DNA of 46,387 nt, taken from positions 3,917-50,303 of the forward strand of contig JAGQSZ010000002.1 in NCBI GenBank assembly GCA_020439285.1. The letters run 5' to 3'. The translations under genes were made by a program, and so were the position numbers. Source of the DNA: Microthrixaceae bacterium (GTDB lineage Bacteria; Actinomycetota; Acidimicrobiia; Acidimicrobiales; Microtrichaceae). Shown here one piece after another: positions 14,215 through 38,177 of the stretch. Positions within the stretch are counted from its first letter, which is position 1. Each line of letters starts with the position of its first letter. The notes under the pieces are model-generated. The model had not been told where the DNA came from and searched no databases. It saw only the letters and a list, made by a program, of their open reading frames with translations.

Positions 14215-15726
14215 TCACGTACCACAGAACGTCTGGAACGAGGCTGCGAACTGTGCAGAGGAGCCGGCAGCGAAGCGCTCGAGGCCGGGTCGCTCGGTGA
14301 AGGGATCGGACAGGACCTCGATCAGTTCTTCGAACCCGGTCAAGGAACCCGCGGTCGCGTCCTGCAGTACGTCATGAACGATGTGATTGCGTGGGATATA
14401 GACGGGATTCACCGAGTCCATACGTGTGGCCGCGTCTTGATGGTCTACTCCCGAGTCACTCAGTTGAGCACGCCATCGTGAGATCCATTCGCTGAGTTCG
14501 GCGCTCTGCTCACTGCCGTCATCGGCGATCGGATCACTGACACCGGGGGAATCCGCTCGCAGCGTGCCAGAAAGCGAGCGGAACGCTCGGGTCCAGTCCA
14601 AGCGATCCTTGTGCATCGCTGTTAGCAAGTTGCTTACTAGTTCTTCACAGTTGGTCGGCACCTCAGCGAATCCGAGCTTCGCTGCCATTAGGGCGTTCCA
14701 GTGTTGGGCGAACCTATCGACGAAACCGTTCACCGTTTCCGTGGCCATCTCGACTGCGGCCTCGGTGTCGTCGGAAAACAGGCCGAGCATTGTCTCCGCT
14801 AAGCGAGCCAGGTTCCACGTCGCCACCCGGGCTTGATTCCCGTAGGAATAGCGTCCCCCGTGATCGATGGAACTGAACACCGTTGAAGGGTCGTAGGCAT
14901 CCATGAAGGCGCAAGGGCCGTAGTCGATTCCCTCTCCCGAAATCGTCATGTTGTCCGTGTTCATCACTCCGTGGATGAATCCGAGACTCATCCACTTGGC
15001 GATGAGCACAGCCTGAGCATCGACCACCGCCGACAGCAGACCGAGGTATCTATTGGACGAGTCATCGCTGTCTGGATGGTGACGCTCTATGCAATGGTCA
15101 GCCAATCGTCTGACCAGGTCCTCGCCGCCAAGACGGATGGCGTACTCGAAAGTGCCCACTCTGATATGACTCGCTGCAACTCGTGTCAGTACCGCGCCCG
15201 GTTCGATTCCGTCTCGGTACACACCTTCGCCGGTCATGACCACCGACAGGCTCCGAGTGGTTGGCACGCTCATAGAGCACATGGCTTCGGAAACGATGTA
15301 CTCGCGCAGCATCGGACCAAGAGTTGCTTTACCGTCACCTCCCCGAGCGAACGGAGTGCGGCCCGAACCCTTCAGGTGAATGTCAACCAAGCGCCCGTCG
15401 GGCTTGGTCAGTTCACCGAGCAGGAGTGCTCTACCGTCACCCAACCGTGGCGAGTAGTTGCCGAACTGGTGACCTGCGTAACCAAGCGCGACTGGAGTCG
15501 CCCCCTCAGGTACGAGATTGCCTGCAAGAACGCCAACGCCTTCTGGTCCGGAGAGCCGTCCGGGGTCGAGTCCCAATTCTGTGGCCAGGTTGTCGTTGAA
15601 TATCGCCAGGCTCGGTTCAGGGACCTGGGCAGCGTTCCACGGAAGACACAACTCGGGGAACTCGTCAGCGAAGCGATGCCCCAAAGCCATCATGTCGGTC
15701 ACACGACCAGGATCCAGATCTGTCAC
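14215..15726 (-). CDS. selO: Protein adenylyltransferase SelO (YdiU/UPF0061)
   Basis: GHQFGNYSPRLGDGRA and HGVMNTDNMTISGEGIDYGP motifs. About 500 aa, with a C-terminal ...FCGT. Confidence 0.9.
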   Translation of the reverse strand: MTDLDPGRVTDMMALGHRFADEFPELCLPWNAAQVPEPSLAIFNDNLATELGLDPGRLSGPEGVGVLAGNLVPEGATPVALGYAGHQFGNYSPRLGDGRALLLGELTKPDGRLVDIHLKGSGRTPFARGGDGKATLGPMLREYIVSEAMCSMSVPTTRSLSVVMTGEGVYRDGIEPGAVLTRVAASHIRVGTFEYAIRLGGEDLVRRLADHCIERHHPDSDDSSNRYLGLLSAVVDAQAVLIAKWMSLGFIHGVMNTDNMTISGEGIDYGPCAFMDAYDPSTVFSSIDHGGRYSYGNQARVATWNLARLAETMLGLFSDDTEAAVEMATETVNGFVDRFAQHWNALMAAKLGFAEVPTNCEELVSNLLTAMHKDRLDWTRAFRSLSGTLRADSPGVSDPIADDGSEQSAELSEWISRWRAQLSDSGVDHQDAATRMDSVNPVYIPRNHIVHDVLQDATAGSLTGFEELIEVLSDPFTERPGLERFAAGSSAQFAASFQTFCGT

Positions 15727-17174: not shown

Positions 17175-17996
17175 TCAGATAGTGAAGGTCAGATTGCTTG
17201 CCAGTTGTTCAGCGAGCTCAACGTCCCCACCCAGTTCGATTTCGACACCCAGATATGGGTTGGCACTTTCCCGTCCTCCGGTGAGCCGCAGGAACAGAAC
17301 GGAGTCGAGGCGGATTGAGACGGTGGGTTGACCATCGATTGCGTCTACAACTTTTGCCCTATCAGAGTTATCGACCAGGTAGGTTGCCGCCGATGGTCCG
17401 GTCAACTCGATACTCACCGTTGCGCCCTTTGGCAGAGCGGCTTTCTTGGCGACGATGTAGCCGAGCCCGGCGACTGGCTCCGCCACTGATGCGGAGACAT
17501 GGTCCGGCGGCACAATATTGTCCAGACCCAGGGCTTCGGTGATGTCGAGGGTGTGCATGAAGCAGTCGTAATGGCGGATTCGCATGAAGCGTCCATACGT
17601 TTCATCGGGTCCGGCTGGCGTCCACGAAGGTTCATCGAAGTCGGATTGTGTCATTACTCTGAGCGCGTCCATCCGCTGCGAAGTCACTTCTCGGAAACGC
17701 TCCAGCACCTCGATCCCCGGGAGTTGCCGCATCGATTGAACCCAGAGTTCATTTGCCTGGCCGATCGGATTGCGGACATGTTCGAACCCAGCGATGTCAA
17801 CCTCTGGGTTGGGTTGGCCAGCCAACATGGACTCGGTACCGACAATGTGACTCACGTTGTCCTTGACCGACCATCCGGGAAGGCAAGTGGGCCGCGCCCA
17901 GTCGGATTCTTCGAATCCGTCACATAGCAACGCGATCGTGTCGAACTGCTCGCCAAGGAGTCGCACTATCTCGTCACGGTTAACGATCGTTGCCAT
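17175..17996 (-). CDS. Maleylpyruvate-isomerase-family mycothiol-dependent enzyme (DinB fold plus SCP2-like C-terminus)
   Basis: N-terminal DinB/MDMPI-like helices (W..P..LPGWSVKD..SH) and a C-terminal sterol-carrier-like tail. The start ATG overlaps the upstream stop by 1 nt. Confidence 0.7.
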   Translation of the reverse strand: MATIVNRDEIVRLLGEQFDTIALLCDGFEESDWARPTCLPGWSVKDNVSHIVGTESMLAGQPNPEVDIAGFEHVRNPIGQANELWVQSMRQLPGIEVLERFREVTSQRMDALRVMTQSDFDEPSWTPAGPDETYGRFMRIRHYDCFMHTLDITEALGLDNIVPPDHVSASVAEPVAGLGYIVAKKAALPKGATVSIELTGPSAATYLVDNSDRAKVVDAIDGQPTVSIRLDSVLFLRLTGGRESANPYLGVEIELGGDVELAEQLASNLTFTI

Positions 17997-18688
17997 CAGG
18001 GGGTCTCCTTTTGGATGGTCACCCAGTCCCGGGCTTCCAGGTACGGAGTGAACTTCTCGGCGATTCGGGCGATCTCATTTGGTCCCTTGGGCCGCTGTAT
18101 CTCGAAGAGATCAGGAAACTCGAGCCAGCTACAAACATGGTCCCAGAGGCGCACCGCATCGTCACCCAAGGGTGCATCAACCACGACTGGTCCGAAGATG
18201 ATCTGTCCATCTGCGAACCTCAGTGTCGGAACACCGAATCCGCCCGATGCAACTATCAGGTCGTGTTCGGCGCGCACCTCATCATGCGTTGTTTCATCCG
18301 CCAGAGCCTCTCCCACCAAGACCGGGTCCAGTCCCATTTCACCAAGCAGTTCTTCCGCTGTTTCACGTCGGTGTGGCTTCCTGCCCTGTTCGTGCAACGC
18401 ACGTCCGGCATGCAGGTACCAGCGATCCAGCAGGTCCATCTCGGTGCGTCGCAGTAGTGCGCCAATACGCATCATCGACCATCCGTATGACCAGTCACGT
18501 TCCCACGGGTGCTTCTTTCCCTCAGCACGGTTGATCTCTTCGAGACTGAAGAAGCGCCAGTTCACCTTCAGTCCCGTCTGCGCTCGAACCTCTCGAATCC
18601 AAAGCGAACTCTGGTACGCCCATGGACACATGACGTCGAAGTGGAAGTCGACTTCTGAGATTTCCGCAACGCCCCCTGTTGCACTCAC
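17996..18688 (-). CDS. DsbA-like thioredoxin-fold protein with monothiol CPWA motif
   Basis: DFHFDVMCPWAYQS at the N-terminus and GVPTLRF near the C-terminus. I favour GTG 18688 (VSATGG) as the start. The 328-aa ORF-track version would overlap the divergent sialidase gene. Confidence 0.7.
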   Translation of the reverse strand: MSATGGVAEISEVDFHFDVMCPWAYQSSLWIREVRAQTGLKVNWRFFSLEEINRAEGKKHPWERDWSYGWSMMRIGALLRRTEMDLLDRWYLHAGRALHEQGRKPHRRETAEELLGEMGLDPVLVGEALADETTHDEVRAEHDLIVASGGFGVPTLRFADGQIIFGPVVVDAPLGDDAVRLWDHVCSWLEFPDLFEIQRPKGPNEIARIAEKFTPYLEARDWVTIQKETP

Positions 18689-18777
18689 GTCTCCGAGACT
18701 ACCGGCCAAACCAGCACAACTCGTTCGCGATTCACCCGGCGATTGAACGACGGCACGACACATAGAACACTGACCTG

Positions 18778-20040
18778 ATGGCATCACAGCGATCAGCCCG
18801 ACGAGTTGGTTTCCGAGTCCCACATCTCTTGGGCGTCGGTCTGATTGCCGTGTCTCTTGGAATGGGGTCGGCGTGTTCCGGGGGCAGTGGTGATGACCAA
18901 GGCGGAACCAATGCATCGACGACTGAGAAAGAGTCCACGACGACCACCATCGACCGCGCGGATGCGATGCTCGACTCGACAACCGTGTTTCGTTCAGGTG
19001 AGGACGGATACGCGACGTATCGGATCCCTGCGGTGGTCAGTGCCGCTGACGGAACGCTCATTGCCTTTGCGGAGGGCCGTGTGACCAACGCTGCTGATGA
19101 CGGAAACGTTGATCTGCTCGCCAAGCGTTCGACCGACGGTGGACGGACGTGGGGTGAACTACAGGTCATAGCTGACATGGGTTCCAACTTCATAGGAAAC
19201 CCATCGCCGGTACTCGACAAAGCTTCTGGACGATTAGTTTTGTTGGCTACTTACAAGGCGGGAACCGATACCGAGATCCAGATCTTGACCGGCACGGGCG
19301 AAGACACCAGTCGCGAGTACCTGCTGACCAGCGATGACAACGGAACCACCTGGTCGGAACCCTCTGAAATCACCGAGTCGGTGAAGCGGCCCGAGTGGCG
19401 CTGGTACAGCGTCGGTCCTGGTCACGCGTTCCAGATCCAGTCCGGACCACACGCCGGCAGGCTGGTCGCCGCTGCCAACCACTCCGACAGTGAACTCAAC
19501 TATGGAGCACACCTCCTCTTGAGCGACGACGGCGGCAAGACCTGGCGGATCGGAGCTTCTGACACTCCTCGGGGCGGCCCACTGCATCCCAATGAAGCGA
19601 CAGCCGCTGCTCTGGCCGATGGCACGATCGTCGTGTCAGCGCGTGATCAGGAAGGCGCCGACGAGTGGCACCGCCTACAGACCACCTCCACTGATGGTGG
19701 CGAGACTTTCGTGACTCCATTCAAGGACCAAACAGGATTGGTCACACCAGTTGTTCAGGCATCAATGCTCTGGTTCGACGGAGTCGACAAGAAGTCTGGT
19801 CAGTTGCTGTTCTCGGCACCATCAGATCCCCAGGATCGAATCAACCTACGTGTCAGGTCATCGCTCGATTCTGGAACCACATGGTCCGATGGGTTCCTGG
19901 TAGGACCGGGTCCCGCGGCGTATTCAGACCTGATCGAACTGCCGGGTCAACTCGTTGGAGTTCTATTCGAAACGGGGGACACCGGAGCCAGTGAGCGAAT
20001 CGATTTCGCCACGTTCGGAGCCGACAATCTGGCGGGCTGA
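18778..20040 (+). CDS. Exo-alpha-sialidase (BNR/Asp-box), probable lipoprotein
   Basis: YRIP motif and five Asp-boxes (STDGGRTW, SDDNGTTW, SDDGGKTW, STDGGETF, SLDSGTTW). N-terminal RR-containing signal ending ...SLGMGSAC. Confidence 0.85.
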   Translation: MASQRSARRVGFRVPHLLGVGLIAVSLGMGSACSGGSGDDQGGTNASTTEKESTTTTIDRADAMLDSTTVFRSGEDGYATYRIPAVVSAADGTLIAFAEGRVTNAADDGNVDLLAKRSTDGGRTWGELQVIADMGSNFIGNPSPVLDKASGRLVLLATYKAGTDTEIQILTGTGEDTSREYLLTSDDNGTTWSEPSEITESVKRPEWRWYSVGPGHAFQIQSGPHAGRLVAAANHSDSELNYGAHLLLSDDGGKTWRIGASDTPRGGPLHPNEATAAALADGTIVVSARDQEGADEWHRLQTTSTDGGETFVTPFKDQTGLVTPVVQASMLWFDGVDKKSGQLLFSAPSDPQDRINLRVRSSLDSGTTWSDGFLVGPGPAAYSDLIELPGQLVGVLFETGDTGASERIDFATFGADNLAG

Positions 20041-27179: not shown

Positions 27180-27959
27180 TCAGAAGACCACTGTCGCTGC
27201 GTTGGCGACCGCAATGAGAACCAGCGTGACTGCAAAGGCTTGGGCCGACCGCTTCGGATCAAGTCGCTTGGCAAGCAACGCTCCGCCCATGCTGCCAATG
27301 AGCATGGGAACAGTGAATGCACCAGCAGTTGGCCAGTCAACTGAGTCCACTCCTCGGACAACCATTGCAACTGCCGCATTACCGGCAATGACAGCAAGCG
27401 AGGTCGCTACCGATTCGGGCATGTCCAAGCCGATGAATATGGCGAGCACGGGGACGATCACGAAGCCACCACCGACCCCGAACAGTCCCGTTAGGAACCC
27501 GACCGTTACACCCGCAACGGCGAATACGAGCATTCGCTCTGCTAACGGTGTGCTCTTGGACAGCCTGTCTGGGGAAGCCGCTCTGTAATCGGAGGTGGCG
27601 ACCTCTACGTTGGATGCGAACATCCGGTAGGCGGCCAGAAGCATCAACATCGAGAATCCAATCAGCAGCCATCCTCCGTCTATGCGGCGACCGAGTGCTG
27701 CACCGGCTATTGATCCAAGTGCTCCGGCTGTAACGAACCAAGCCGTTATATCCCACCGAATGTGGTTACGGTGCCCCGACGAAAGTGCTGCCACCAGAGC
27801 AGCTGCACCGACTGCCACCAACGAGGTCGCCGTGGCTTCGTGAACGCCCAGTCCAAGAATGTGGACCAGGACCGGCACTGCCAGTATCGACCCTCCGGCC
27901 CCAAGGGCACCCAAGGTCAAACCGATGATCGCTCCGAAGAGCACCGCCAGAATGATCAC
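27180..27959 (-). CDS. TauE/SafE-family sulfite/organosulfonate exporter
   Basis: 259 aa, about eight TM helices, Gly-rich repeats (LGALGAGGSILAVP, GLFGVGGGFVIVP). ATGA overlap with the upstream gene. Confidence 0.8.
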   Translation of the reverse strand: MIILAVLFGAIIGLTLGALGAGGSILAVPVLVHILGLGVHEATATSLVAVGAAALVAALSSGHRNHIRWDITAWFVTAGALGSIAGAALGRRIDGGWLLIGFSMLMLLAAYRMFASNVEVATSDYRAASPDRLSKSTPLAERMLVFAVAGVTVGFLTGLFGVGGGFVIVPVLAIFIGLDMPESVATSLAVIAGNAAVAMVVRGVDSVDWPTAGAFTVPMLIGSMGGALLAKRLDPKRSAQAFAVTLVLIAVANAATVVF

Positions 27960-29398
27960 TGGACAGGAGTCACCAGACAGGTTGCATCGACACCGAGAGC
28001 CATCGCTCCACCGAGCACGTCAGAGACGTCGGTAAACCCATTTGCCATCAACAAGCTGCTAGCGATTGCCGAGCGGGCACCGCCTGCGCAGACCAACACG
28101 ACTGGCTCATCGGGTTTCAACGTTGTCAGCTCAGCACTCAATCGAGCGAGGGGAATGTTCTGTGCCCCTTCCACCTCAGCATCTTCGACCTCCCCCGGAT
28201 TCCGTACGTCAATGAACTGCAATCGATCGCCGAGGGACTCACGACGTTCTGCCAAGTCTGCTGCGGTCAGACGAGACATGCGATCAGCCCGATCCGGGTG
28301 GGCAGCGAGCACGGAGGACACATCAGCCAAAACGCCGACAATCCGATCGAAGCCAATTCGAGCGAGTCTTGTGCGGGCCTCAGCGGCTGCAGGTGCGTCA
28401 CCGACGAGCACCACCTCGGCCCCAAATGGCACGACACTGCCTACCTGTTCGGCAAATCTTCCGTCCAGGCTGACATGGAGCGAGCCAGACAGATGCCCGG
28501 CTGCGAACTCGTTGACTGGACGAGTATCAACGACCGTCGCTCCCCGACTGACGGCGGAATCCACTTCAGCAAGATCAAGCACGGTCACCGGCTCGGTCTC
28601 ATCGAGCAAAGGCCGGTCCAGACGGTTCAGTTTCGCGTCATGACCGAAATAGCCCGGGGCGGCGGGTTGCCCCTCGGTGACAATCTCGATGAACTGTTCT
28701 CTGGTCATTGTCGGGGCGAGCGCGTAGTTGGTATCTCTTTGCACACCAATTGTGGACACGGTCTCGCTCGATAGCGACTTGCCACAAGCAGACCCTGCTC
28801 CGTGTGCCGGCAGAACCAGCGTCTCAGCAGGTAGGCCTGCCAGCCTGTTGACTGAGTCGAAAAGCCTCGAAGCCAGTTCGGCCGCCGGAATATCCGCAGC
28901 TACCAACAGGTCCGGGCGGCCGACATCGCCGATGAACAACGCGTCACCCGTCAGCACCGCAATAGGAGGTTGCCCATGCCCGACATGGATCACCAAGGAG
29001 ATCGATTCGGGGGTGTGCCCTGGAGTTGACCAGACCTCGATTTGAACGTTGCCGAGGTCAATCACCTCACCGTCACGAAGGGCACGGGATGGAAATTCGG
29101 TGCTCGCTGCCTCTCCGTAACCGATCTCGGCTCCGGTAGCATCCGCCATCTCCAAGTGTCCCGAAATGAAGTCTGCGTGGAAGTGAGTCTGGACGACCAA
29201 CTCGACCTTCAGGCCTTCAGATGCTGCAACCCCGAGCACTTCATCGATGTCACGTCGCGGGTCGACAACGATCGCCCGACCCGTGGAGCGGTCACCGACT
29301 AGGTACGCCGCCTGGGACAGACAGCCCAAGTAGAACTGGTGGATTACGAGGGGTTCGGTCAGGCCTTCGAGCGATACCGAGGATTGTGTGTCTGTCAT
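27956..29398 (-). CDS. CstB-like persulfide dioxygenase (MBL fold) fused to two rhodanese domains
   Basis: MBL motifs HFHADFISGH, TPGHTPES, GDALFIGDVGRPD. The middle rhodanese lacks Cys. The C-terminal rhodanese has the active loop VCAGGARS. Confidence 0.85.
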   Translation of the reverse strand: MTDTQSSVSLEGLTEPLVIHQFYLGCLSQAAYLVGDRSTGRAIVVDPRRDIDEVLGVAASEGLKVELVVQTHFHADFISGHLEMADATGAEIGYGEAASTEFPSRALRDGEVIDLGNVQIEVWSTPGHTPESISLVIHVGHGQPPIAVLTGDALFIGDVGRPDLLVAADIPAAELASRLFDSVNRLAGLPAETLVLPAHGAGSACGKSLSSETVSTIGVQRDTNYALAPTMTREQFIEIVTEGQPAAPGYFGHDAKLNRLDRPLLDETEPVTVLDLAEVDSAVSRGATVVDTRPVNEFAAGHLSGSLHVSLDGRFAEQVGSVVPFGAEVVLVGDAPAAAEARTRLARIGFDRIVGVLADVSSVLAAHPDRADRMSRLTAADLAERRESLGDRLQFIDVRNPGEVEDAEVEGAQNIPLARLSAELTTLKPDEPVVLVCAGGARSAIASSLLMANGFTDVSDVLGGAMALGVDATCLVTPVQ

Positions 29399-29496
29399 GG
29401 TCCTGTTCCAATCTCTGGTCCCGGTAGGCGGCTACCAGAATCCTTCCCTGTTATTGGGTTCCGATGTCGGGCAGGTGCTTGAACACACACCGCACC

Positions 29497-29537
29497 GTAT
29501 ACCCCATGGAGTATAGCGTATACCCCAAGGGGTATAC
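29497..29537. promoter_or_regulatory. Two tandem CsoR/CstR-type palindromic operators
   Basis: Site 1 is GTATACCCCATGGAGTATAG (29497-29516). Site 2 is GTATACCCCAAGGGGTATAC (29518-29537, perfect 9-bp arms). Their centres are 21 bp apart, in the divergent intergenic region between 29398(-) and 29589(+). Confidence 0.7.
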
Positions 29538-29588
29538 AGATCACGGGGCTACATACGGCTGACCAACGCGATTAGGTTCATTGCCACG

Positions 29589-30128
29589 ATGTCCAACCCA
29601 TTGCTTTGGCCCTACGACGATCTAATCCATGCCTACTGGGTAGAACCACGATCGATCCTTGCCGGCGAGTATCCGGGAAATGCTGACCCGATGAAAGCAC
29701 GGACCAAGATCGAGTTGCTTTGCGACAACGGCATTCGAACCTTCATTGACCTGACCCAACCAGCCGATGGTCTAACGCCTTATGACTCCACACTGGATGC
29801 CGTAGGACTGAGTCGCGGGGTGGATCTCGTTCGAATCCCCCACCCGATCCCGGACATGGGTGTCCTGCCCACCAATCAGTACGACGACATCCTCGAAAGC
29901 GTGCATCGATCCGCTGACAATGGTGGCGTCTACATCCACTGCTGGGGAGGCATAGGCAGAACCGCAACCGTCGTCGGATGCCTGTTCGTCGAAATGGGTT
30001 TGAGTGGAGAGGGCGCCATGCGAACGATCAAGGAGCGTCGGGCGGACACGCGTAAGGCCAATATGCGAGCACCCCAGACACACCAACAACGAGACGTCAT
30101 CTTCCAACGGGCCGCGAAACGGCCATAG
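29589..30128 (+). CDS. Cys-based (CX5R) dual-specificity / protein-tyrosine-phosphatase-like protein
   Basis: P-loop signature VYIHCWGGIGRTATV (HCxxGxxRT). 179 aa. Confidence 0.75.
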   Translation: MSNPLLWPYDDLIHAYWVEPRSILAGEYPGNADPMKARTKIELLCDNGIRTFIDLTQPADGLTPYDSTLDAVGLSRGVDLVRIPHPIPDMGVLPTNQYDDILESVHRSADNGGVYIHCWGGIGRTATVVGCLFVEMGLSGEGAMRTIKERRADTRKANMRAPQTHQQRDVIFQRAAKRP

Positions 30129-30313: not shown

Positions 30314-30751
30314 ATGACTACGGTTCTCCGTCAAATTCCCGCATCTGCGCAGACTCTCCTGGGCTCTGACGCACTCGCCCATGTCGTGACTCTGGACCGC
30401 AACGGACTACCTCAGGTGTCCGTCGTTTGGTGCGGGGTCCGAGACAACGACGTCCTGTTCTGCACCGAGGGAGGTTCGGCCAAGGTCCGCAACATCAAGC
30501 AGAATCCTCGGGTCGTTCTCTCGATCGAGGACGAAATGCGTAACGCTGCAGGCACCCAGCATCATCTGGTCATCCATGGCGTTGCAGAGGTCCTAGGACC
30601 AGTGGACCCTGAACTATGTGACCAACTGTGCGCCGTGTACGCGGGTCACCGTGACCATCCGATAAACCTCCGCAAGTCTCCGACTGCTGTGACAGTCGCC
30701 GTTCACGTGGAGAGGATCGGCGGCAACGGCCCTTGGGCACACGGGGACTGA
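30314..30751 (+). CDS. PPOX-class (pyridoxamine-5'-phosphate-oxidase-like) probable F420-dependent enzyme
   Basis: LAHVVTLDRNGLPQVSVVW...KVRNIKQNPRVVLSI, typical of the split-barrel PPOX/F420 class. Start at ATG 30314 (MTTVLRQ). Confidence 0.7.
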   Translation: MTTVLRQIPASAQTLLGSDALAHVVTLDRNGLPQVSVVWCGVRDNDVLFCTEGGSAKVRNIKQNPRVVLSIEDEMRNAAGTQHHLVIHGVAEVLGPVDPELCDQLCAVYAGHRDHPINLRKSPTAVTVAVHVERIGGNGPWAHGD

Positions 30752-30769: not shown

Positions 30770-31681
30770 TCAGCGAAGCATCTCCACACGACGAGCACAC
30801 GCTTGGGTGAATAGGTCCTCTGCTCCCGCAGACAGAGACAAGAACAACGAGGGCTCGAACAGTTCTGCCTCGATGAGGGCGACTGTTCCGTCGTCTAGTT
30901 CGACCATGTCGAATCGGCCATAAAGTGGCATGGCACCGTCGGGCAGCCAGTCACGCTCCCGTGCGATCTCTGTGGACGCGCGAAGTGCGCTATTAGCCAC
31001 GTCCAATTCGACATCTGTTGGCTGATGGAGGCTGACGTTCTCCTGATAAACACCCCCGATCAGCCCGCCACCTTTTTCAAGGATCGGCCCCTTGCGAAGA
31101 CAGTGAGACAGCGCGCCATCAAAGAAGACAGCCGAGATCTCTCCAACTGTTGCGACTGAGGAGACGAAGGGTTCCACGATCACCTTCACACCCTCGGTGA
31201 GAATTTCATGCGCCAGGCCGAGCGCTGCTGGATCGTCTGCGACGAACCACCCGGTCAAACGACTACCGGCAGATACGACAGGCTTGATCACGGCATCGGT
31301 CGAGCCGAGTGCATTCAACGCCGCGGCAACTTGATCGATATTTTCGGCAACCACGGTCCGAACAACTGGAACTCCCCGCGATTCGAGTTCCAAGAGATAG
31401 CCCTTGTCGAGATTCCAGCGAATAAGTGCTGCCGGGTTCTGAAGCTGACCCAGGCCAGCGACCCGGTCGAGCCAGGCGAGGAACTCCGCTGAGCGCGTCG
31501 CGTAGTCCCATGGCGATCGGATCACGACGAGGTCATATGCATCCCACTGGACTGTCGGATCGGTCCAGTAGCGGTACTCGAGATCAATTCCGCGCCGAGC
31601 GAACGACGCCTCATGAAACGGACGGTCGACATCCTCATCCCGAATGTGGTCACCTTCTGCAGTTACGAACGCTACGTGCAC
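30770..31681 (-). CDS. ATP-grasp ligase (RimK/glutathione-synthetase-like)
   Basis: 303 aa. Pre-ATP-grasp N-domain (YDLVVIRSPWDY...FLAWL), central IKPVVSAGS, and C-terminal ...GRFDMVELDDGTVALIEAELFEPSLF resembling the Mg-ATP site. Confidence 0.6.
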   Translation of the reverse strand: MHVAFVTAEGDHIRDEDVDRPFHEASFARRGIDLEYRYWTDPTVQWDAYDLVVIRSPWDYATRSAEFLAWLDRVAGLGQLQNPAALIRWNLDKGYLLELESRGVPVVRTVVAENIDQVAAALNALGSTDAVIKPVVSAGSRLTGWFVADDPAALGLAHEILTEGVKVIVEPFVSSVATVGEISAVFFDGALSHCLRKGPILEKGGGLIGGVYQENVSLHQPTDVELDVANSALRASTEIARERDWLPDGAMPLYGRFDMVELDDGTVALIEAELFEPSLFLSLSAGAEDLFTQACARRVEMLR

Positions 31682-31786
31682 ACACCATTGTTAGTTCACC
31701 TGCGATATCTCAGATCAACTCGCCGGCCAGAGGGGGTTCCCTAGCTACAGGACGGTGACATGCCGTGACATCGCCCGGATCTACAT

Positions 31787-31802
31787 ATACCCTATGGGGT
31801 AT
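31787..31802. promoter_or_regulatory. CsoR/CstR-type operator (third copy)
   Basis: ATACCC-TATG-GGGTAT. The extended ATATACCCTATGGGGTATGT overlaps ATG 31801. Confidence 0.65.
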
Positions 31803-31959
31803 GTGTTCACGTGTGACTTGCCCAACCTGTAATCGTCCTACATTCGCTGGGTGCGGTATGCATGTCGAGCAGGTGCTCGGCGATGTGCCGCCGGCCGAAC
31901 GCTGCCAATGTGGAACCAACCCCGCGCCTTCCAGCGCACAGCACCAAAGACGTCGCTGA
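31801..31959 (+). CDS. Small Cys-rich protein (52 aa; 6 Cys, CPTC...GCG.H...CQC)
   Basis: MCSRVTCPTCNRPTFAGCGMHVEQVLGDVPPAERCQCGTNPAPSSAQHQRRR. An alternative GTG start lies at 31765. It sits immediately downstream of, and overlapping, the operator. Confidence 0.55.
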   Translation: MCSRVTCPTCNRPTFAGCGMHVEQVLGDVPPAERCQCGTNPAPSSAQHQRRR

Positions 31960-31964
31960 ACCCG

Positions 31965-33314
31965 GTGACGAATTCCCAACCAGCGTCATTTGACGGATCC
32001 AAGGACGACGCCGCTCAACGTCGAGTCATCAGGACCTTGGTCGGGGCCCAAATACTTTCGGGTGCAGGCCTCGCTGCCGGAGTCTCGGTGGGCGCCCTGC
32101 TGGCTCAGGACATGTTCGGATCGGAGGGACTCGCCGGCGTTCCTGCCGCGTTGTTCACCATTGGCTCGGCAGGTGCCGCTGTAGCAGTCGGCAGAACATC
32201 AGACCGCCACGGGCGAAGGCGTGGACTAAGTCTCGGGTATGCGACCGGAGCTTTGGGAGCAATCCTGATAGTTGCGGCAGCAAGCATTGGTTCAACCGCA
32301 TTGCTGTTGCCATCACTGTTGATATACGGCGCTGGAACTGCAACCAATCTTCAGGCCCGATACGCCGGAGCTGACCTAGCGACGCCCGAGCACAGCGCTC
32401 GAGCCATAAGCACCGTCCTGGTAGCCACGACAATTGGTGCCGTGGTGGGGCCGAACATGATTTCCCCCATGGGCAACCTCGCTGAGGCCGTCGGAGTCCC
32501 GCGACTTGCAGGGCCATTCCTTCTCGCAGCTGCCGCCTATGGGCTCGCTGCCGTAGTACTTCAAACACGCCTGCATCCCGATCCGCTTCTGCTGGCACGC
32601 GAGCGAGCATTGAAATCGGCCGAGGCGATTCCGGTTCAAGTGACAGGACATGATGCGGATGGGGCTCATGCACCAGATGGAGCCGCTGCGCATTCAGTCG
32701 GGGATAGACCATCCCGCGAGTCAATGCAGCGCAGGGTTCTACTCGGCGGATTCGTGATGGTGGTCGCCCAGATCGTCATGGCAGCAATCATGACCATGAC
32801 GCCGGTCCACATGCGTGCCCACGGGCACGGCCTGGCTGCGTCCGGTGTAGTCATCGCCGCTCATATCGCCGGCATGTACCTACCCTCTCCCCTGACGGGC
32901 CGCCTCGTCGACAGATTCGGAGCATCCGCAATTGCGATCGCGTCCGGCGTCACACTCGCGATCTCGGGCCTGATGGCCGCAGCCACCCCATCCTCATCAG
33001 TAATCGGACTCGGGGCGGCACTTACAGTCCTGGGCCTCGGGTGGAACCTGGGCCTGTTGAGCGGCACCTCGATTGTCACCGACGCGGTTCCCATCGAAGT
33101 CCGTGCACGTACACAGGGGTCGGTCGATCTGTCCATTGCGATCGCCGGCACAACAGGGGGCCTCGGCTCGGGTGTCGTCGTGGCGTCGAGTTCCTATCCG
33201 ATGCTTGCGATGGTCGGAGCCGTGATCGCTATCGCCGTCCTTCCGATAGTCGCGTTCACGACTCGCTCGCCACGCAACGACCGGGTCAGCCGTGCTGCCA
33301 GATCCTCTGTTTGA
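31965..33314 (+). CDS. MFS transporter (12-TM type)
   Basis: Hydrophobic profile with the GRTSDRHGRRRG loop between TM2 and TM3 (MFS motif A-like). The start is uncertain: GTG 31965 lies 6 nt after the small-ORF stop, ATG 31908 is an alternative, and the ORF-track 31851 is an over-extension. Confidence 0.8.
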   Translation: MTNSQPASFDGSKDDAAQRRVIRTLVGAQILSGAGLAAGVSVGALLAQDMFGSEGLAGVPAALFTIGSAGAAVAVGRTSDRHGRRRGLSLGYATGALGAILIVAAASIGSTALLLPSLLIYGAGTATNLQARYAGADLATPEHSARAISTVLVATTIGAVVGPNMISPMGNLAEAVGVPRLAGPFLLAAAAYGLAAVVLQTRLHPDPLLLARERALKSAEAIPVQVTGHDADGAHAPDGAAAHSVGDRPSRESMQRRVLLGGFVMVVAQIVMAAIMTMTPVHMRAHGHGLAASGVVIAAHIAGMYLPSPLTGRLVDRFGASAIAIASGVTLAISGLMAAATPSSSVIGLGAALTVLGLGWNLGLLSGTSIVTDAVPIEVRARTQGSVDLSIAIAGTTGGLGSGVVVASSSYPMLAMVGAVIAIAVLPIVAFTTRSPRNDRVSRAARSSV

Positions 33315-35722: not shown

Positions 35723-36241
35723 TCAGTCGATCGCGCGCTGTGCAAGTTCTTCGACCAACTCGGCAACCATCTCCGAAGGTGGGCCCGGCAACCCGAGCAG
35801 AGCACTGAGATACAGGCCGTTGCCCACCACTTGAACAACCGAGCCCAGATAGGGATCAAGAGCCTCGAGCGGTTCATACAGCCGTTCCAGAGCAGAGCGA
35901 ATGAGTCCGTCGGACCCGGTGTCGTTCGCGTGAAGCGCAGCGAGTAGCGAATTGAAAGTTGTTGCCTCTTCAGGTCCTTGGATCTCATATGCGAGGTACC
36001 AGCGCACGATCTCTGCAGGGTCGCTCGGAGCGTCGCTGACCAGCGCATCGACCCGCTGATGGAGCCGTTCCCCGAAACCCTCCATCAACGATTGTTTCGA
36101 CGGGAAGTGGTACAGCAGTCCCCCCTTGGACACATTCGCATGCTTTGCAACGGCGTCGAGGGTCACGTTGCTGATCCCACCGGACACCACCAAAGTCTCG
36201 AACGAGTCGAGTATCCGCTCACGGTTGGACGGTCGAGCCAT
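35723..36241 (-). CDS. TetR/AcrR-family transcriptional regulator
   Basis: HTH region VTLDAVAKHANVSKGGLLYHFPSKQSL. It lies 6 nt downstream of the MFS stop, with a GGAGGG RBS. Confidence 0.9.
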   Translation of the reverse strand: MARPSNRERILDSFETLVVSGGISNVTLDAVAKHANVSKGGLLYHFPSKQSLMEGFGERLHQRVDALVSDAPSDPAEIVRWYLAYEIQGPEEATTFNSLLAALHANDTGSDGLIRSALERLYEPLEALDPYLGSVVQVVGNGLYLSALLGLPGPPSEMVAELVEELAQRAID

Positions 36242-36247
36242 TTGAGG

Positions 36248-37795
36248 TCAACCCTCCCCAGCGCCGGGTCGCTGTCGAGCATCTACGGGTTCGCCGGACA
36301 CCGATGGGTTCTTGCGAACAGCCGCTGCAGTCCACACGGTAACCGCTGCAAGGGCCAGAGTGGCGATGAGCGCCGCCGTGTGCAGGCCAGAGACAAAGGC
36401 CAGTTTCGCCCCGTTGACCAACACTCCTCCAACCTCGGAAGGCAACTTCTCAGCCGCAATTACAGCCGCTCCAAGTGTCTCGCGCGCAGCCTCTATCGAA
36501 TTTTGTGGCACCCCTTGGATCTGATCGATACGCGGTCGGTACACCGCTGTCAGGACACTACCGAGCAGCGCTGTGCCGAGCGCGATACCCAGTTCGTTAC
36601 TGGTCTCGGACACCGAGGCGCCCGCTCCCGCTCGTTCAGGTGGGATGACCGACATGATGCCGTCGATGGCCACGGTCATCGCCATGCTGAGTCCTCCGTA
36701 GGCGCCGGCGATCGCGAGAGTGGTCAGCGCAATCGGACCTGTTAGATCAACGATCATGAAGGTCGCGAAACCGATCGTTCCAAGCGCTAGTCCCACGGTC
36801 ATAACTTGGAATGGGCCGGTTCGTCGGACCAACGCTGGCGCTGCCAGCATCATGACGATCGCGGCGACCACCGCAGGCATCAGTTGGACACCGGACCGCA
36901 GCGCCGACATCCCGAGCACGAGTTGGAAGTACTGGGTGATGAAGAACAGGCCGCCGGCGAATCCGAACGAGGCGACCAGATTCGCGACAATCGCTCTGCG
37001 AAAGCCCGGAATGGCGAAGAGCCTTGTATCGATCATCGGGTCCGCCAGGCGGCGCTGACGAACCACGAACGCGGCCCCAGCCGACGCACCGATCACCAGC
37101 GCCAACAAACCGACCCGGTCGATTCCGCGCTCGGCAGCCATTTTGATAGCGAAGATCGTTGGGATCATCGCGACGATCGACAAAGCAGAACTGGGGATAT
37201 CGAAACGGCCCGGCGAGGGGTCCCGTGATTCGGGAACGAGGCGGGGCCCCAGGATCTGCAGTGTCACAGTGACTGGTACACCGACCAGGAACACAGACCC
37301 CCACCAGAAGTGGTCCAACAGCAGCCCACCGATGATCGGTCCGACTGCTCCTCCGATGGCGAATGAGGCTGCCCAGATCGATATCGCTACCTGCCGTTCC
37401 TGGGGATTGGGAAAGATGTTGCGAATGAGCGACAACGTGGACGGCATGAGGGTCGCTCCCGAGAACCCCAGTAGGGCTCTCGCTGCGATCAACGCTGATG
37501 CGCTCGGAGCGAACGCTGCCATAACCGAGGTAGCGCTGAACGCGGCCGCACCGATCATCAGCAATCGCCTTCGACCGATTCGGTCCCCGACCGAACCCAT
37601 CGTCACCAACAGACCAGCGAGAATGAACGAATAGATATCCACTATCCACAGAAGCTGCGAACTGGTCGGCTCGAGCGATTCAGAGAGATGGGGAACGGCG
37701 AACCCGAGCATGGTGCCGTCCATCGAGATGATCAGCACCGGAAGCACAAGGACCGCGAGAGCCTGCCATCGTCGTTCGTGGATACCGGGACGCAC
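36248..37795 (-). CDS. MFS DHA2-family (14-TM, EmrB/QacA-like) efflux pump
   Basis: 515 aa. N-terminus RRWQALAVLVLPVLIISMDGTMLGFAVP, then GSVGDRIGRRR. GTG start at 37795, probably leaderless. Confidence 0.85.
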   Translation of the reverse strand: MRPGIHERRWQALAVLVLPVLIISMDGTMLGFAVPHLSESLEPTSSQLLWIVDIYSFILAGLLVTMGSVGDRIGRRRLLMIGAAAFSATSVMAAFAPSASALIAARALLGFSGATLMPSTLSLIRNIFPNPQERQVAISIWAASFAIGGAVGPIIGGLLLDHFWWGSVFLVGVPVTVTLQILGPRLVPESRDPSPGRFDIPSSALSIVAMIPTIFAIKMAAERGIDRVGLLALVIGASAGAAFVVRQRRLADPMIDTRLFAIPGFRRAIVANLVASFGFAGGLFFITQYFQLVLGMSALRSGVQLMPAVVAAIVMMLAAPALVRRTGPFQVMTVGLALGTIGFATFMIVDLTGPIALTTLAIAGAYGGLSMAMTVAIDGIMSVIPPERAGAGASVSETSNELGIALGTALLGSVLTAVYRPRIDQIQGVPQNSIEAARETLGAAVIAAEKLPSEVGGVLVNGAKLAFVSGLHTAALIATLALAAVTVWTAAAVRKNPSVSGEPVDARQRPGAGEG

Positions 37796-37797
37796 GC

Positions 37798-37829
37798 AGT
37801 TACTATACCGTCTGGTCGGTATAGTAACT
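37798..37829. promoter_or_regulatory. 13-bp perfect inverted repeat with 6-nt spacer overlapping a -10-like TATAGT (candidate TetR operator)
   Basis: AGTTACTATACCG-TCTGGT-CGGTATAGTAACT. On the minus strand TATAGT ends 6 nt before GTG 37795. Confidence 0.65.
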
Positions 37830-37906: not shown

Positions 37907-37922
37907 ATACCCTATGGGGTAT
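37907..37922. promoter_or_regulatory. CsoR/CstR-type operator (fourth copy)
   Basis: ATACCC-TATG-GGGTAT. The 18-mer ATACCCTATGGGGTATGT is identical to the copy at 31787-31804. Confidence 0.65.
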
Positions 37923-37958
37923 GTATTCGCAGTATTCCGTCCCATCTAGACCATCGGC

Positions 37959-38177
37959 GTGTTGAACGTCTGCGGGCTCACCCGAATTCTCGTTCCCGCA
38001 TCACTTGCCGGATTGATGGTGTCGGTCGTAACCAGTAGCGACCTGTGGGGATGGGTGGCAGCGGTTGCGCTCGGAGCAGCGCTGGTTCTTGTGGGCCGGG
38101 TCCGCGGGACCCAGACCGCATGCCCTATTCCAACTACCCCGGCAGCGTCTGACCGAAGCAGGTCAACACAGAGATAG
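37959..38177 (+). CDS. Small hypothetical membrane protein (72 aa, two predicted TM helices)
   Basis: GTG start. ILVPASLAGLMVSVVTS and WGWVAAVALGAALVLVG are hydrophobic segments. It is the only plausible ORF in an otherwise 367-nt gap. It overlaps the convergent gene by 15 nt. No SD sequence. Confidence 0.4.
   Translation: MLNVCGLTRILVPASLAGLMVSVVTSSDLWGWVAAVALGAALVLVGRVRGTQTACPIPTTPAASDRSRSTQR

Follow-up and report, generated by a model that had tools for sequence, protein, structure and literature searches.

In Streptomyces coelicolor, the CstR-like repressor ScCsoR (SCO0620) recognizes a 16-bp sequence, ATACC-n6-GGTAT, of which the pdo promoter carries two copies, at -48 and -9. It controls a persulfide dioxygenase (PDO)–rhodanese gene that is co-transcribed with tauE; polysulfide releases ScCsoR (PMC7533328). 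The actinomycete DUF156 proteins with an x-C-x-C pattern, which is the fingerprint of persulfide sensors, form SSN cluster 3 of PF02583 and are candidate persulfide sensors (PMC8643695). In Firmicutes (S. aureus, Enterococcus, Streptococcus), CstR is an x-C-x-C DUF156 persulfide sensor that acts on an ATACCC...GGGGTAT operator and controls tauE and cstB, the latter encoding a PDO with two rhodanese domains (PMC8643695, PMC5480029); in S. mitis, the operator of cst reads ATATACCCTTATGGGGTATAT (PMC8643695). The Streptomyces Cu-CsoR operator consensus is ATATACCCCTNAGGGGTATAT, and S. lividans CsoR binds G-tract pseudopalindromes with TAC/GTA dyads, two tetramers per site (PMC3902906). Mycobacterium tuberculosis RicR has operators of the same kind. 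These proteins have an x-C-H-C Cu(I) site, and copZA, mmcO or mymT as targets. RicR acts in trans on several dispersed loci that include genes of small Cys-rich proteins, in the manner proposed below for the regulator of the DNA studied here, and the copper-responsive RicR/MymT pair places a small Cys-rich protein under a DUF156 operator.

The stretch of DNA analysed here (the window, 46,387 nucleotides, G+C 60%) carries an actinobacterial locus that resembles the ScCsoR circuit in its 16-bp sites, in the presence of two of them before a PDO-rhodanese-tauE operon and, as judged from the regulators of its relatives, in a repressor with two Cys and no His. The two circuits differ in that the ScCsoR gene lies in the cluster and is autoregulated, whereas the 46 kb analysed here contain no repressor gene, and its position is taken by a gene for a Cys phosphatase. 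The two pdo sites of S. coelicolor are separated by 39 bp and those of the window by 21 bp, and where the ScCsoR regulon has a separate rhodanese gene, the proposed regulon of the window has a leaderless Cys-rich ORF with its MFS gene, plus a small membrane ORF. Compared with the window, the core of the Firmicute operator is longer by one spacer base (S. mitis, ATACCCTTATGGGGTAT). The Firmicute operons contain either cstA and sqr or coaP and rhdA/B, genes that are all missing from the window, and their cstR is encoded within the cst locus, whereas the window locus is without cstR. As for CsoR and RicR, their targets are replaced here by sulfur-detoxification genes, the regulators of the relatives are without the His, and the TAC-X9-GTA spacing of CsoR operators, including that of Streptomyces Cu-CsoR (PMC3902906), contrasts with N8 in the window and in the other Acidimicrobiia sites collected. 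The tandem sites are very probably operators of a switch whose type is already known; the departure is that the repressor gene is gone from the position that it usually has next to them.

Results

Tandem palindromes between the cstB-like and phosphatase genes

The features of the locus are listed in Table 1. The first-pass annotation had described two adjacent 20-bp palindromes in the 190-nt gap that separates the divergent cstB-like and phosphatase (PTP) genes. Sequence, coordinates and gap are correct, but neither palindrome is perfect over 20 bp: in site 2, matched arms of 9+9 flank an AA centre that is not palindromic, and the arms of site 1 mismatch at two positions, one of which gives GGAG for GGGG. 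The two sites are direct copies, 21 bp from start to start (repeat finder), and their cores have the 16-bp form ATACC-N6-GGTAT, equal to the mapped ScCsoR site. The window sites are pseudopalindromes with TAC/GTA dyads flanking G/C tracts, which is the build of type-2 operators as known from published sites (PMC7533328, PMC3902906, PMC8643695). The annotation had also read the 21 bp between centres as two helical turns. The distance is right for the window, and it is the same in the sister lineage L073, but seven relatives have 23–25 bp and L007 about 42 bp, and this variable spacing rules out a fixed two-turn phasing of the tandem sites. Site 1 matches in position the cstB-proximal site of L001 and L064, approximately 100 nt from the cstB ATG.

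With up to two mismatches allowed, ATACCC-N4-GGGTAT occurs four times in the window (29499, 29520, 31787 and 37907) compared with 0.61 expected, and four copies were reached in none of 100 shuffles of the window. A 20-column PWM, trained on 22 sites that all come from genomes other than that of the window, gives 20.2, 25.5, 28.2 and 25.5 bits for sites 1 to 4, while the next-best window position has 8.3 bits and the top of 50 shuffled windows 17.2 bits. All four sites are intergenic and upstream of genes, in what are probably promoter regions.

Table 1. Operators, promoter elements and genes of the locus, with positions in the window
Feature	Position	Strand	Sequence	Basis or remark
tauE-like sulfite/sulfonate exporter gene	27180..27959	-		Pfam PF01925, E 3.6e-45
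cstB-like gene: persulfide dioxygenase (MBL fold) with two rhodanese domains, 480 aa	27956..29398	-		Pfam Lactamase_B and two Rhodanese stretches
cstB promoter core (inferred)	29489..29501	-	TATACG	-10-like TATACG (29501-29496); apparent mRNA 5' end near 29489
Operator site 1 (putative)	29497-29516, core 29499-29514		GTATACCCCATGGAGTATAG, core ATACCCCATGGAGTAT	cstB-proximal; one core mismatch
Operator site 2 (putative)	29518-29537, core 29520-29535		GTATACCCCAAGGGGTATAC, core ATACCCCAAGGGGTAT	PTP-proximal
Dual-specificity/PTP-like Cys phosphatase gene, 179 aa	29589..30128	+	HCWGGIGRT active site	Pfam PTP-SAK, Tc-R-P, PTP-NADK
F420-dependent PPOX-class oxidoreductase gene	30314..30751	+		Pfam PNPOx_N; NCBIfam TIGR03618, 81.8 bits (cutoff 79)
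-35-like element of the small-ORF promoter	31765..31770	+	GTGACA	17 nt 5' of TACCCT (31788-31793)
Operator site 3 (putative)	31787..31802		ATACCCTATGGGGTAT	Left arm is the -10-like TACCCT, right arm holds the small-ORF ATG
Leaderless 52-aa Cys-rich ORF	31801..31959	+	MCSRVTCPTCNRPTFAGCGMHVEQVLGDVPPAERCQC...	Translation; family conservation
Operator site 4 (putative)	37907..37922		ATACCCTATGGGGTAT	PWM 25.5 bits
72-aa two-helix membrane ORF	37959..38177	+	MLNVCGLTRIL...ACPIP...	Matched by tblastn with the 80-aa ORF of L064, E 3e-11

Genes beside the tandem sites

The gene content proposed by the first-pass annotation (persulfide dioxygenase–rhodanese, TauE and Cys phosphatase) was borne out by Pfam and by PDB alignment, and its statement that S. 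aureus CstR controls cstB and tauE agrees with the literature (PMC5480029). The cstB-like protein matches over its full length two MBL-rhodanese structures, 3tp9 (E 7e-82) and 3r2u (E 2e-61), and the alignment shows that the Cys loop CAGGARS of the C-terminal rhodanese is kept. The tauE gene is the second of the operon, with a 4-nt overlap, and the same cstB-tauE order is found in L001–L006, L064, L072 and L073. By homology, PDO-rhodanese and TauE are functions of sulfide/persulfide detoxification, as would be found in a persulfide regulon.

On the other side of the gap, the PPOX gene (its start is that of the gene call in L058) is probably in the same transcription unit as the PTP gene; in L001, its homolog comes after cstR. 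The PTP active site reads HCWGG(I/V)GRT in the window, L073 and L076, and HGREGLGRP, with the catalytic Cys changed to Gly, in L064 (10839-11375) and L072 (6964-7500). The catalytic HCX5R(T) is kept in the cstR-less lineages (window and L073) and in L076, and is lost in the operons of the cstR-trx-PTP type. Some PTP homologs are fused to an ADP-ribosylglycohydrolase (PF03747), and in L076 the ADPr-GH, PTP and PNPOx genes are consecutive.

Several other genes of the neighbourhood can be mentioned here. All lineages have retained, next to the regulon and in divergent orientation to the small Cys-rich ORF, a DcsG-like ATP-grasp gene (30770-31681, minus strand; NCBIfam NF058666 with 214 bits where the cutoff is 360; Pfam DcsG_N in called genes). 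Further upstream, the window has thiol/redox genes (17175-18982 and 14215-15726, both on the minus strand), which encode an MDMPI-like/DinB mycothiol-dependent protein, an Rv2466c-like DSBA-fold mycothiol nitroreductase and SelO; DUF156-type sites are absent at these genes. A look-up of the exact cstB-like protein found no record, and that of the PTP returned only short contigs of the window's own population, at most 11 kb long, each of them collinear with the window. This population is present in activated-sludge and wastewater metagenomes, and the closest genomic relatives of the window are Acidimicrobiia MAGs, with cstB identity of up to 71%.

A DUF156 gene accompanies the sites in relatives and is missing from the window

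No DUF156 gene was found in the 46-kb window with an R-x-x-R-x-GQ regex, by tblastn with nine regulators of relatives (E > 0.07) or by Pfam on about 40 ORFs, and no cstR remnant is detectable between site 2 and the PTP gene or after the latter. Among the same Pfam-annotated ORFs there are three TetR genes, and neither ArsR nor copper genes. Ten Acidimicrobiia loci with a PF02583 gene (L001–L007, L064, L072 and L079) have equivalent sites beside this gene, 5' of the neighbouring cstB operon, or at both places. In most of the ten, the regulator gene is divergent from the PDO-rhodanese/TauE operon. In L001 and L003–L007 the PF02583 gene (E 1e-23 to 5e-24) is divergent from cstB, with one or two ATACC-N6-GGTAT sites in between. 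In L002 the regulator is downstream of tauE with its own site, and another site is 5' of cstB. L064, L072 and L079, which were found via the regulator protein, likewise combine sites with a regulator gene. None of the four cstB loci whose examined flanks lack a DUF156 gene (L008, L009, L011 and L054) has a site.

These observations bear on the possibility that the four copies are chance palindromes, parts of a repeat element or sites of a regulator of another family such as TetR. Such a regulator would be at hand, as three TetR genes lie in the window. Nevertheless, the statistical excess is large, Rfam returned no match, and the sites recur at corresponding positions in lineages whose neighbouring proteins share 54–71% identity. 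Across related loci they track DUF156 genes strictly, not TetR genes, and the TetR gene next to the second MFS gene of the window has a different palindrome of its own (37802-37825). We consider this possibility extremely improbable, and the four sites are very likely DUF156 operators, as the first-pass annotation had proposed from the motif of the tandem pair.

The L001 locus is syntenic with the window gene for gene: acyl-CoA dehydrogenase, tauE, cstB, operators, a variable slot, PPOX, DcsG-like ATP-grasp, operator, small ORF and MFS. The variable slot is occupied by cstR in L001, by the PTP gene in the window and by cstR-thioredoxin-PTP in L064 and L072. In L073 (83% identity for cstB and 71% for PTP), the PTP gene is directly behind the operators with no cstR. 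Both in the window and at the L073 locus cstR is missing, together with the thioredoxin gene where relatives carry one. That L073 shares the layout argues that it is a feature of the clade and not an accident of assembly. It follows that, with no cstR at either locus and PTP behind the operators, a repressor of these sites would have to act in trans.

The regulators of the relatives have RLRR at the RLXR motif, a conserved TQ and two Cys. At position -4 from the second Cys they have a Gly; this is the position of the Cu-ligand His in S. lividans CsoR and of an Asn in S. pneumoniae CstR. Every adjacent regulator checked has the x-C-x-C fingerprint, without His. A copper-sensing repressor of the CsoR/RicR type (x-C-H-C), with a regulon that responds to Cu(I), could nevertheless be envisaged: the small Cys-rich member of the regulon recalls the RicR-controlled MymT. 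The operators of Cu-CsoR are also very similar to the window sites, as the Streptomyces consensus illustrates (PMC3902906). Against copper, copA, copZ and multicopper oxidase genes are absent near all four sites, where the linked genes are those for PDO-rhodanese and TauE; the His ligand is missing from the adjacent regulators of relatives; and all Acidimicrobiia sites collected are TAC-N8-GTA, as for ScCsoR, versus TAC-X9-GTA for CsoR (PMC3902906, PMC7533328). A response to Cu(I) is highly unlikely on this evidence, and the linkage of PDO-rhodanese and TauE, together with the x-C-x-C regulators of the relatives, supports the CstR-like persulfide-sensing circuit that the first-pass annotation had put forward.

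Two separate observations concern the regulators themselves. A search through metagenome contigs yielded no DUF156 gene assignable to the window organism: when the L001 cstR was compared with four metagenomes, the L001 organism itself was present in three, and the candidate P0098 proved to be another organism. L079 (5222-8140) has two x-C-x-C DUF156 paralogs on one Acidimicrobiia contig: the first is divergent from a rhodanese-YgaP_TM/cstB/tauE operon with tandem N8 sites, and the second is beside a multicopper oxidase gene and a two-component system, with its own N8 site. An Acidimicrobiia genome can hold two such paralogs, each with N8 sites, and the shared operator type raises the question of cross-talk between them.

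Proposed promoter geometry and transcription

The outer arm of each tandem site runs into an outward TATnnn, TATACG toward cstB and TATACA (29533-29538) toward PTP, and a TATnnn continues the outer arm of the cstB-proximal site in every relative. A sigma-70 consensus scan gave no match, which is expected for high-GC actinobacterial promoters, so that the promoter elements are deduced from conservation. A metatranscriptome contig of 241 nt has its end at 29489, 7 nt downstream of TATACG, although the RNA contigs of this population are few and of low depth and may include DNA carry-over. RNA contigs cover parts of 28107-29489 (cstB) and, sparsely, tauE (27678-27857), PTP (29599-29749) and the PPOX gene, which suggests that these genes are transcribed in situ; cstB RNA was detected in five of six wastewater metatranscriptomes. 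From this geometry, site 1 would lie over the -10 of the cstB promoter and the -35 of the PTP promoter, and site 2 over the -35 of the former and the -10 of the latter. Such overlapping back-to-back promoters would explain the compactness of the pair of sites while leaving their exact spacing free to drift.

Probable constraint on the sites

The window and L073 have identical arms at site 2, although they have diverged in its spacer (AA in the former, GT in the latter) and in most of the intergenic DNA around it. Site 3 is wholly identical in the two lineages. Site 1, weakened in the window by its GGAG, has a nearly lost counterpart in L073 (7.9 bits). Within the population of the window, the 190-nt region has only two SNPs, one at the centre of the site 2 spacer (29526) and one at its outermost base (29537), and the arms are spared.

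These comparisons are relevant to the view that the operators are relics, a CstR-like repressor having disappeared from the clade, with decaying sites and constitutive expression of cstB-tauE and PTP. The absence of DUF156 from the window and from the sister locus, the imperfect site 1 of the window with its degenerate L073 counterpart, and the detection of cstB RNA in most of the metatranscriptomes are all compatible with it. However, sites 2, 3 and 4 have perfect arms, differences between the window and L073 hit spacer and flanks but never arms, and the population SNPs are restricted to non-core positions. In addition, the symmetry of both arms is retained, whereas promoter function alone needs only one. 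We regard the relic view as unlikely; the pattern reads as that of sites still used by a repressor encoded elsewhere in the genome, and the weakening of the cstB-proximal site could reflect relaxed selection after loss of the regulator.

Sites 3 and 4 precede small ORFs

Site 3 is present in the same register in L001, L002, L064, L072 and L073. GTGACA and site 3 are invariant in the alignment of the five lineages while the surrounding intergenic DNA varies, and so is the layout GTGACA-17-TACCCT-7-ATG, which would give a leaderless mRNA with both the -10 and the start inside the operator. The 52-aa ORF that begins there belongs to a family of at least 269 members from Acidimicrobiia and Myxococcota, with the motif MCxRVTCxxCxKPTFAGCGxHVEQVLGDV..RCxC, in which C2, C7, C10, C18, H21 and C35 are invariant. 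Pfam and NCBIfam searches had no match, and a Foldseek search of its AlphaFold model (pLDDT 70) against the PDB gave none of significance. An MFS transporter gene (31908-33314, coordinates from the gene called in L058) comes after the 52-aa ORF, and this is always so in Acidimicrobiia; a Polyangiales homolog of the ORF has no operator and is placed after rpsF-rpsR-rplI.

Sites equivalent to site 4 are found upstream of the homologs of the 72-aa ORF in L064 (18990) and L072 (15437). There, the homologs begin at the operator ATG and a DUF302 gene comes next. In the window this ATG opens only a 14-codon uORF (37921-37965); its TGA overlaps with the GTG at which the 72-aa ORF starts (GTGTTGA). The LNVCGxTR...CP pattern of this protein presumably recalls a YgaP-like/DUF2892 transmembrane domain, which Pfam does not support; Pfam and NCBIfam searches with the ORF gave no match. 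Near site 4, directly upstream of an MFS gene (36248-37795, minus strand) after which comes a TetR gene (35723-36241, minus strand), the 24-bp palindrome ACTATACCGTCTGGTCGGTATAGT at 37802-37825 is probably a TetR operator, unrelated to the DUF156 motif.

Discussion

In this work the tandem palindromes of an Acidimicrobiia locus were matched to the operators of a known class of sulfur-responsive repressors, in a lineage in which the repressor gene is not beside them. As far as sequence comparison allows, a persulfide-sensing x-C-x-C repressor probably still acts on these sites in trans.

We infer the following scheme, in which the binding of the repressor, the geometry of the promoters, the role of persulfide as inducer and the encoding of the regulator in trans are deduced. 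Reduced repressor tetramers would occupy the tandem sites over two back-to-back promoters, covering at site 1 the -10 and the start of the cstB-tauE promoter, and at site 2 the cstB -35 region together with the -10 of the PTP-PPOX promoter, which points rightward. On exposure to persulfide or polysulfide, the two Cys of the repressor would be modified, and the protein would then be released from DNA. This release would allow the production of the persulfide dioxygenase–rhodanese, the TauE exporter, the Cys phosphatase and the F420 oxidoreductase, and also that of the leaderless 52-aa Cys-rich protein with its MFS transporter, and of the 72-aa membrane protein.

A more tentative proposal, which we hold as rather doubtful, is that this wastewater clade of Acidimicrobiia moved or lost cstR, that the vacated operator-controlled slot now drives a Cys phosphatase predicted to be intact (the copy in cstR-keeping relatives being predicted to be dead), and that the 52-aa and 72-aa proteins act as novel effectors under sulfane-sulfur stress.

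These findings leave the known mechanism unchanged. They extend the actinobacterial CstR/ScCsoR persulfide switch, which is experimentally defined, to Acidimicrobiia, abundant in sulfide-exposed activated sludge, and they provide a clean model of the operator with which the regulon can be mapped in uncultured Acidimicrobiia genomes. They also indicate that the repressor gene need not adjoin its main target operon, and that the assignment of function from neighbouring genes would miss the lineage of the window. Finally, the regulon offers candidate parts of the reactive-sulfur response, three of them uncharacterised: a DSP-type phosphatase predicted to be active, a Cys-rich mini-protein and a small membrane protein.
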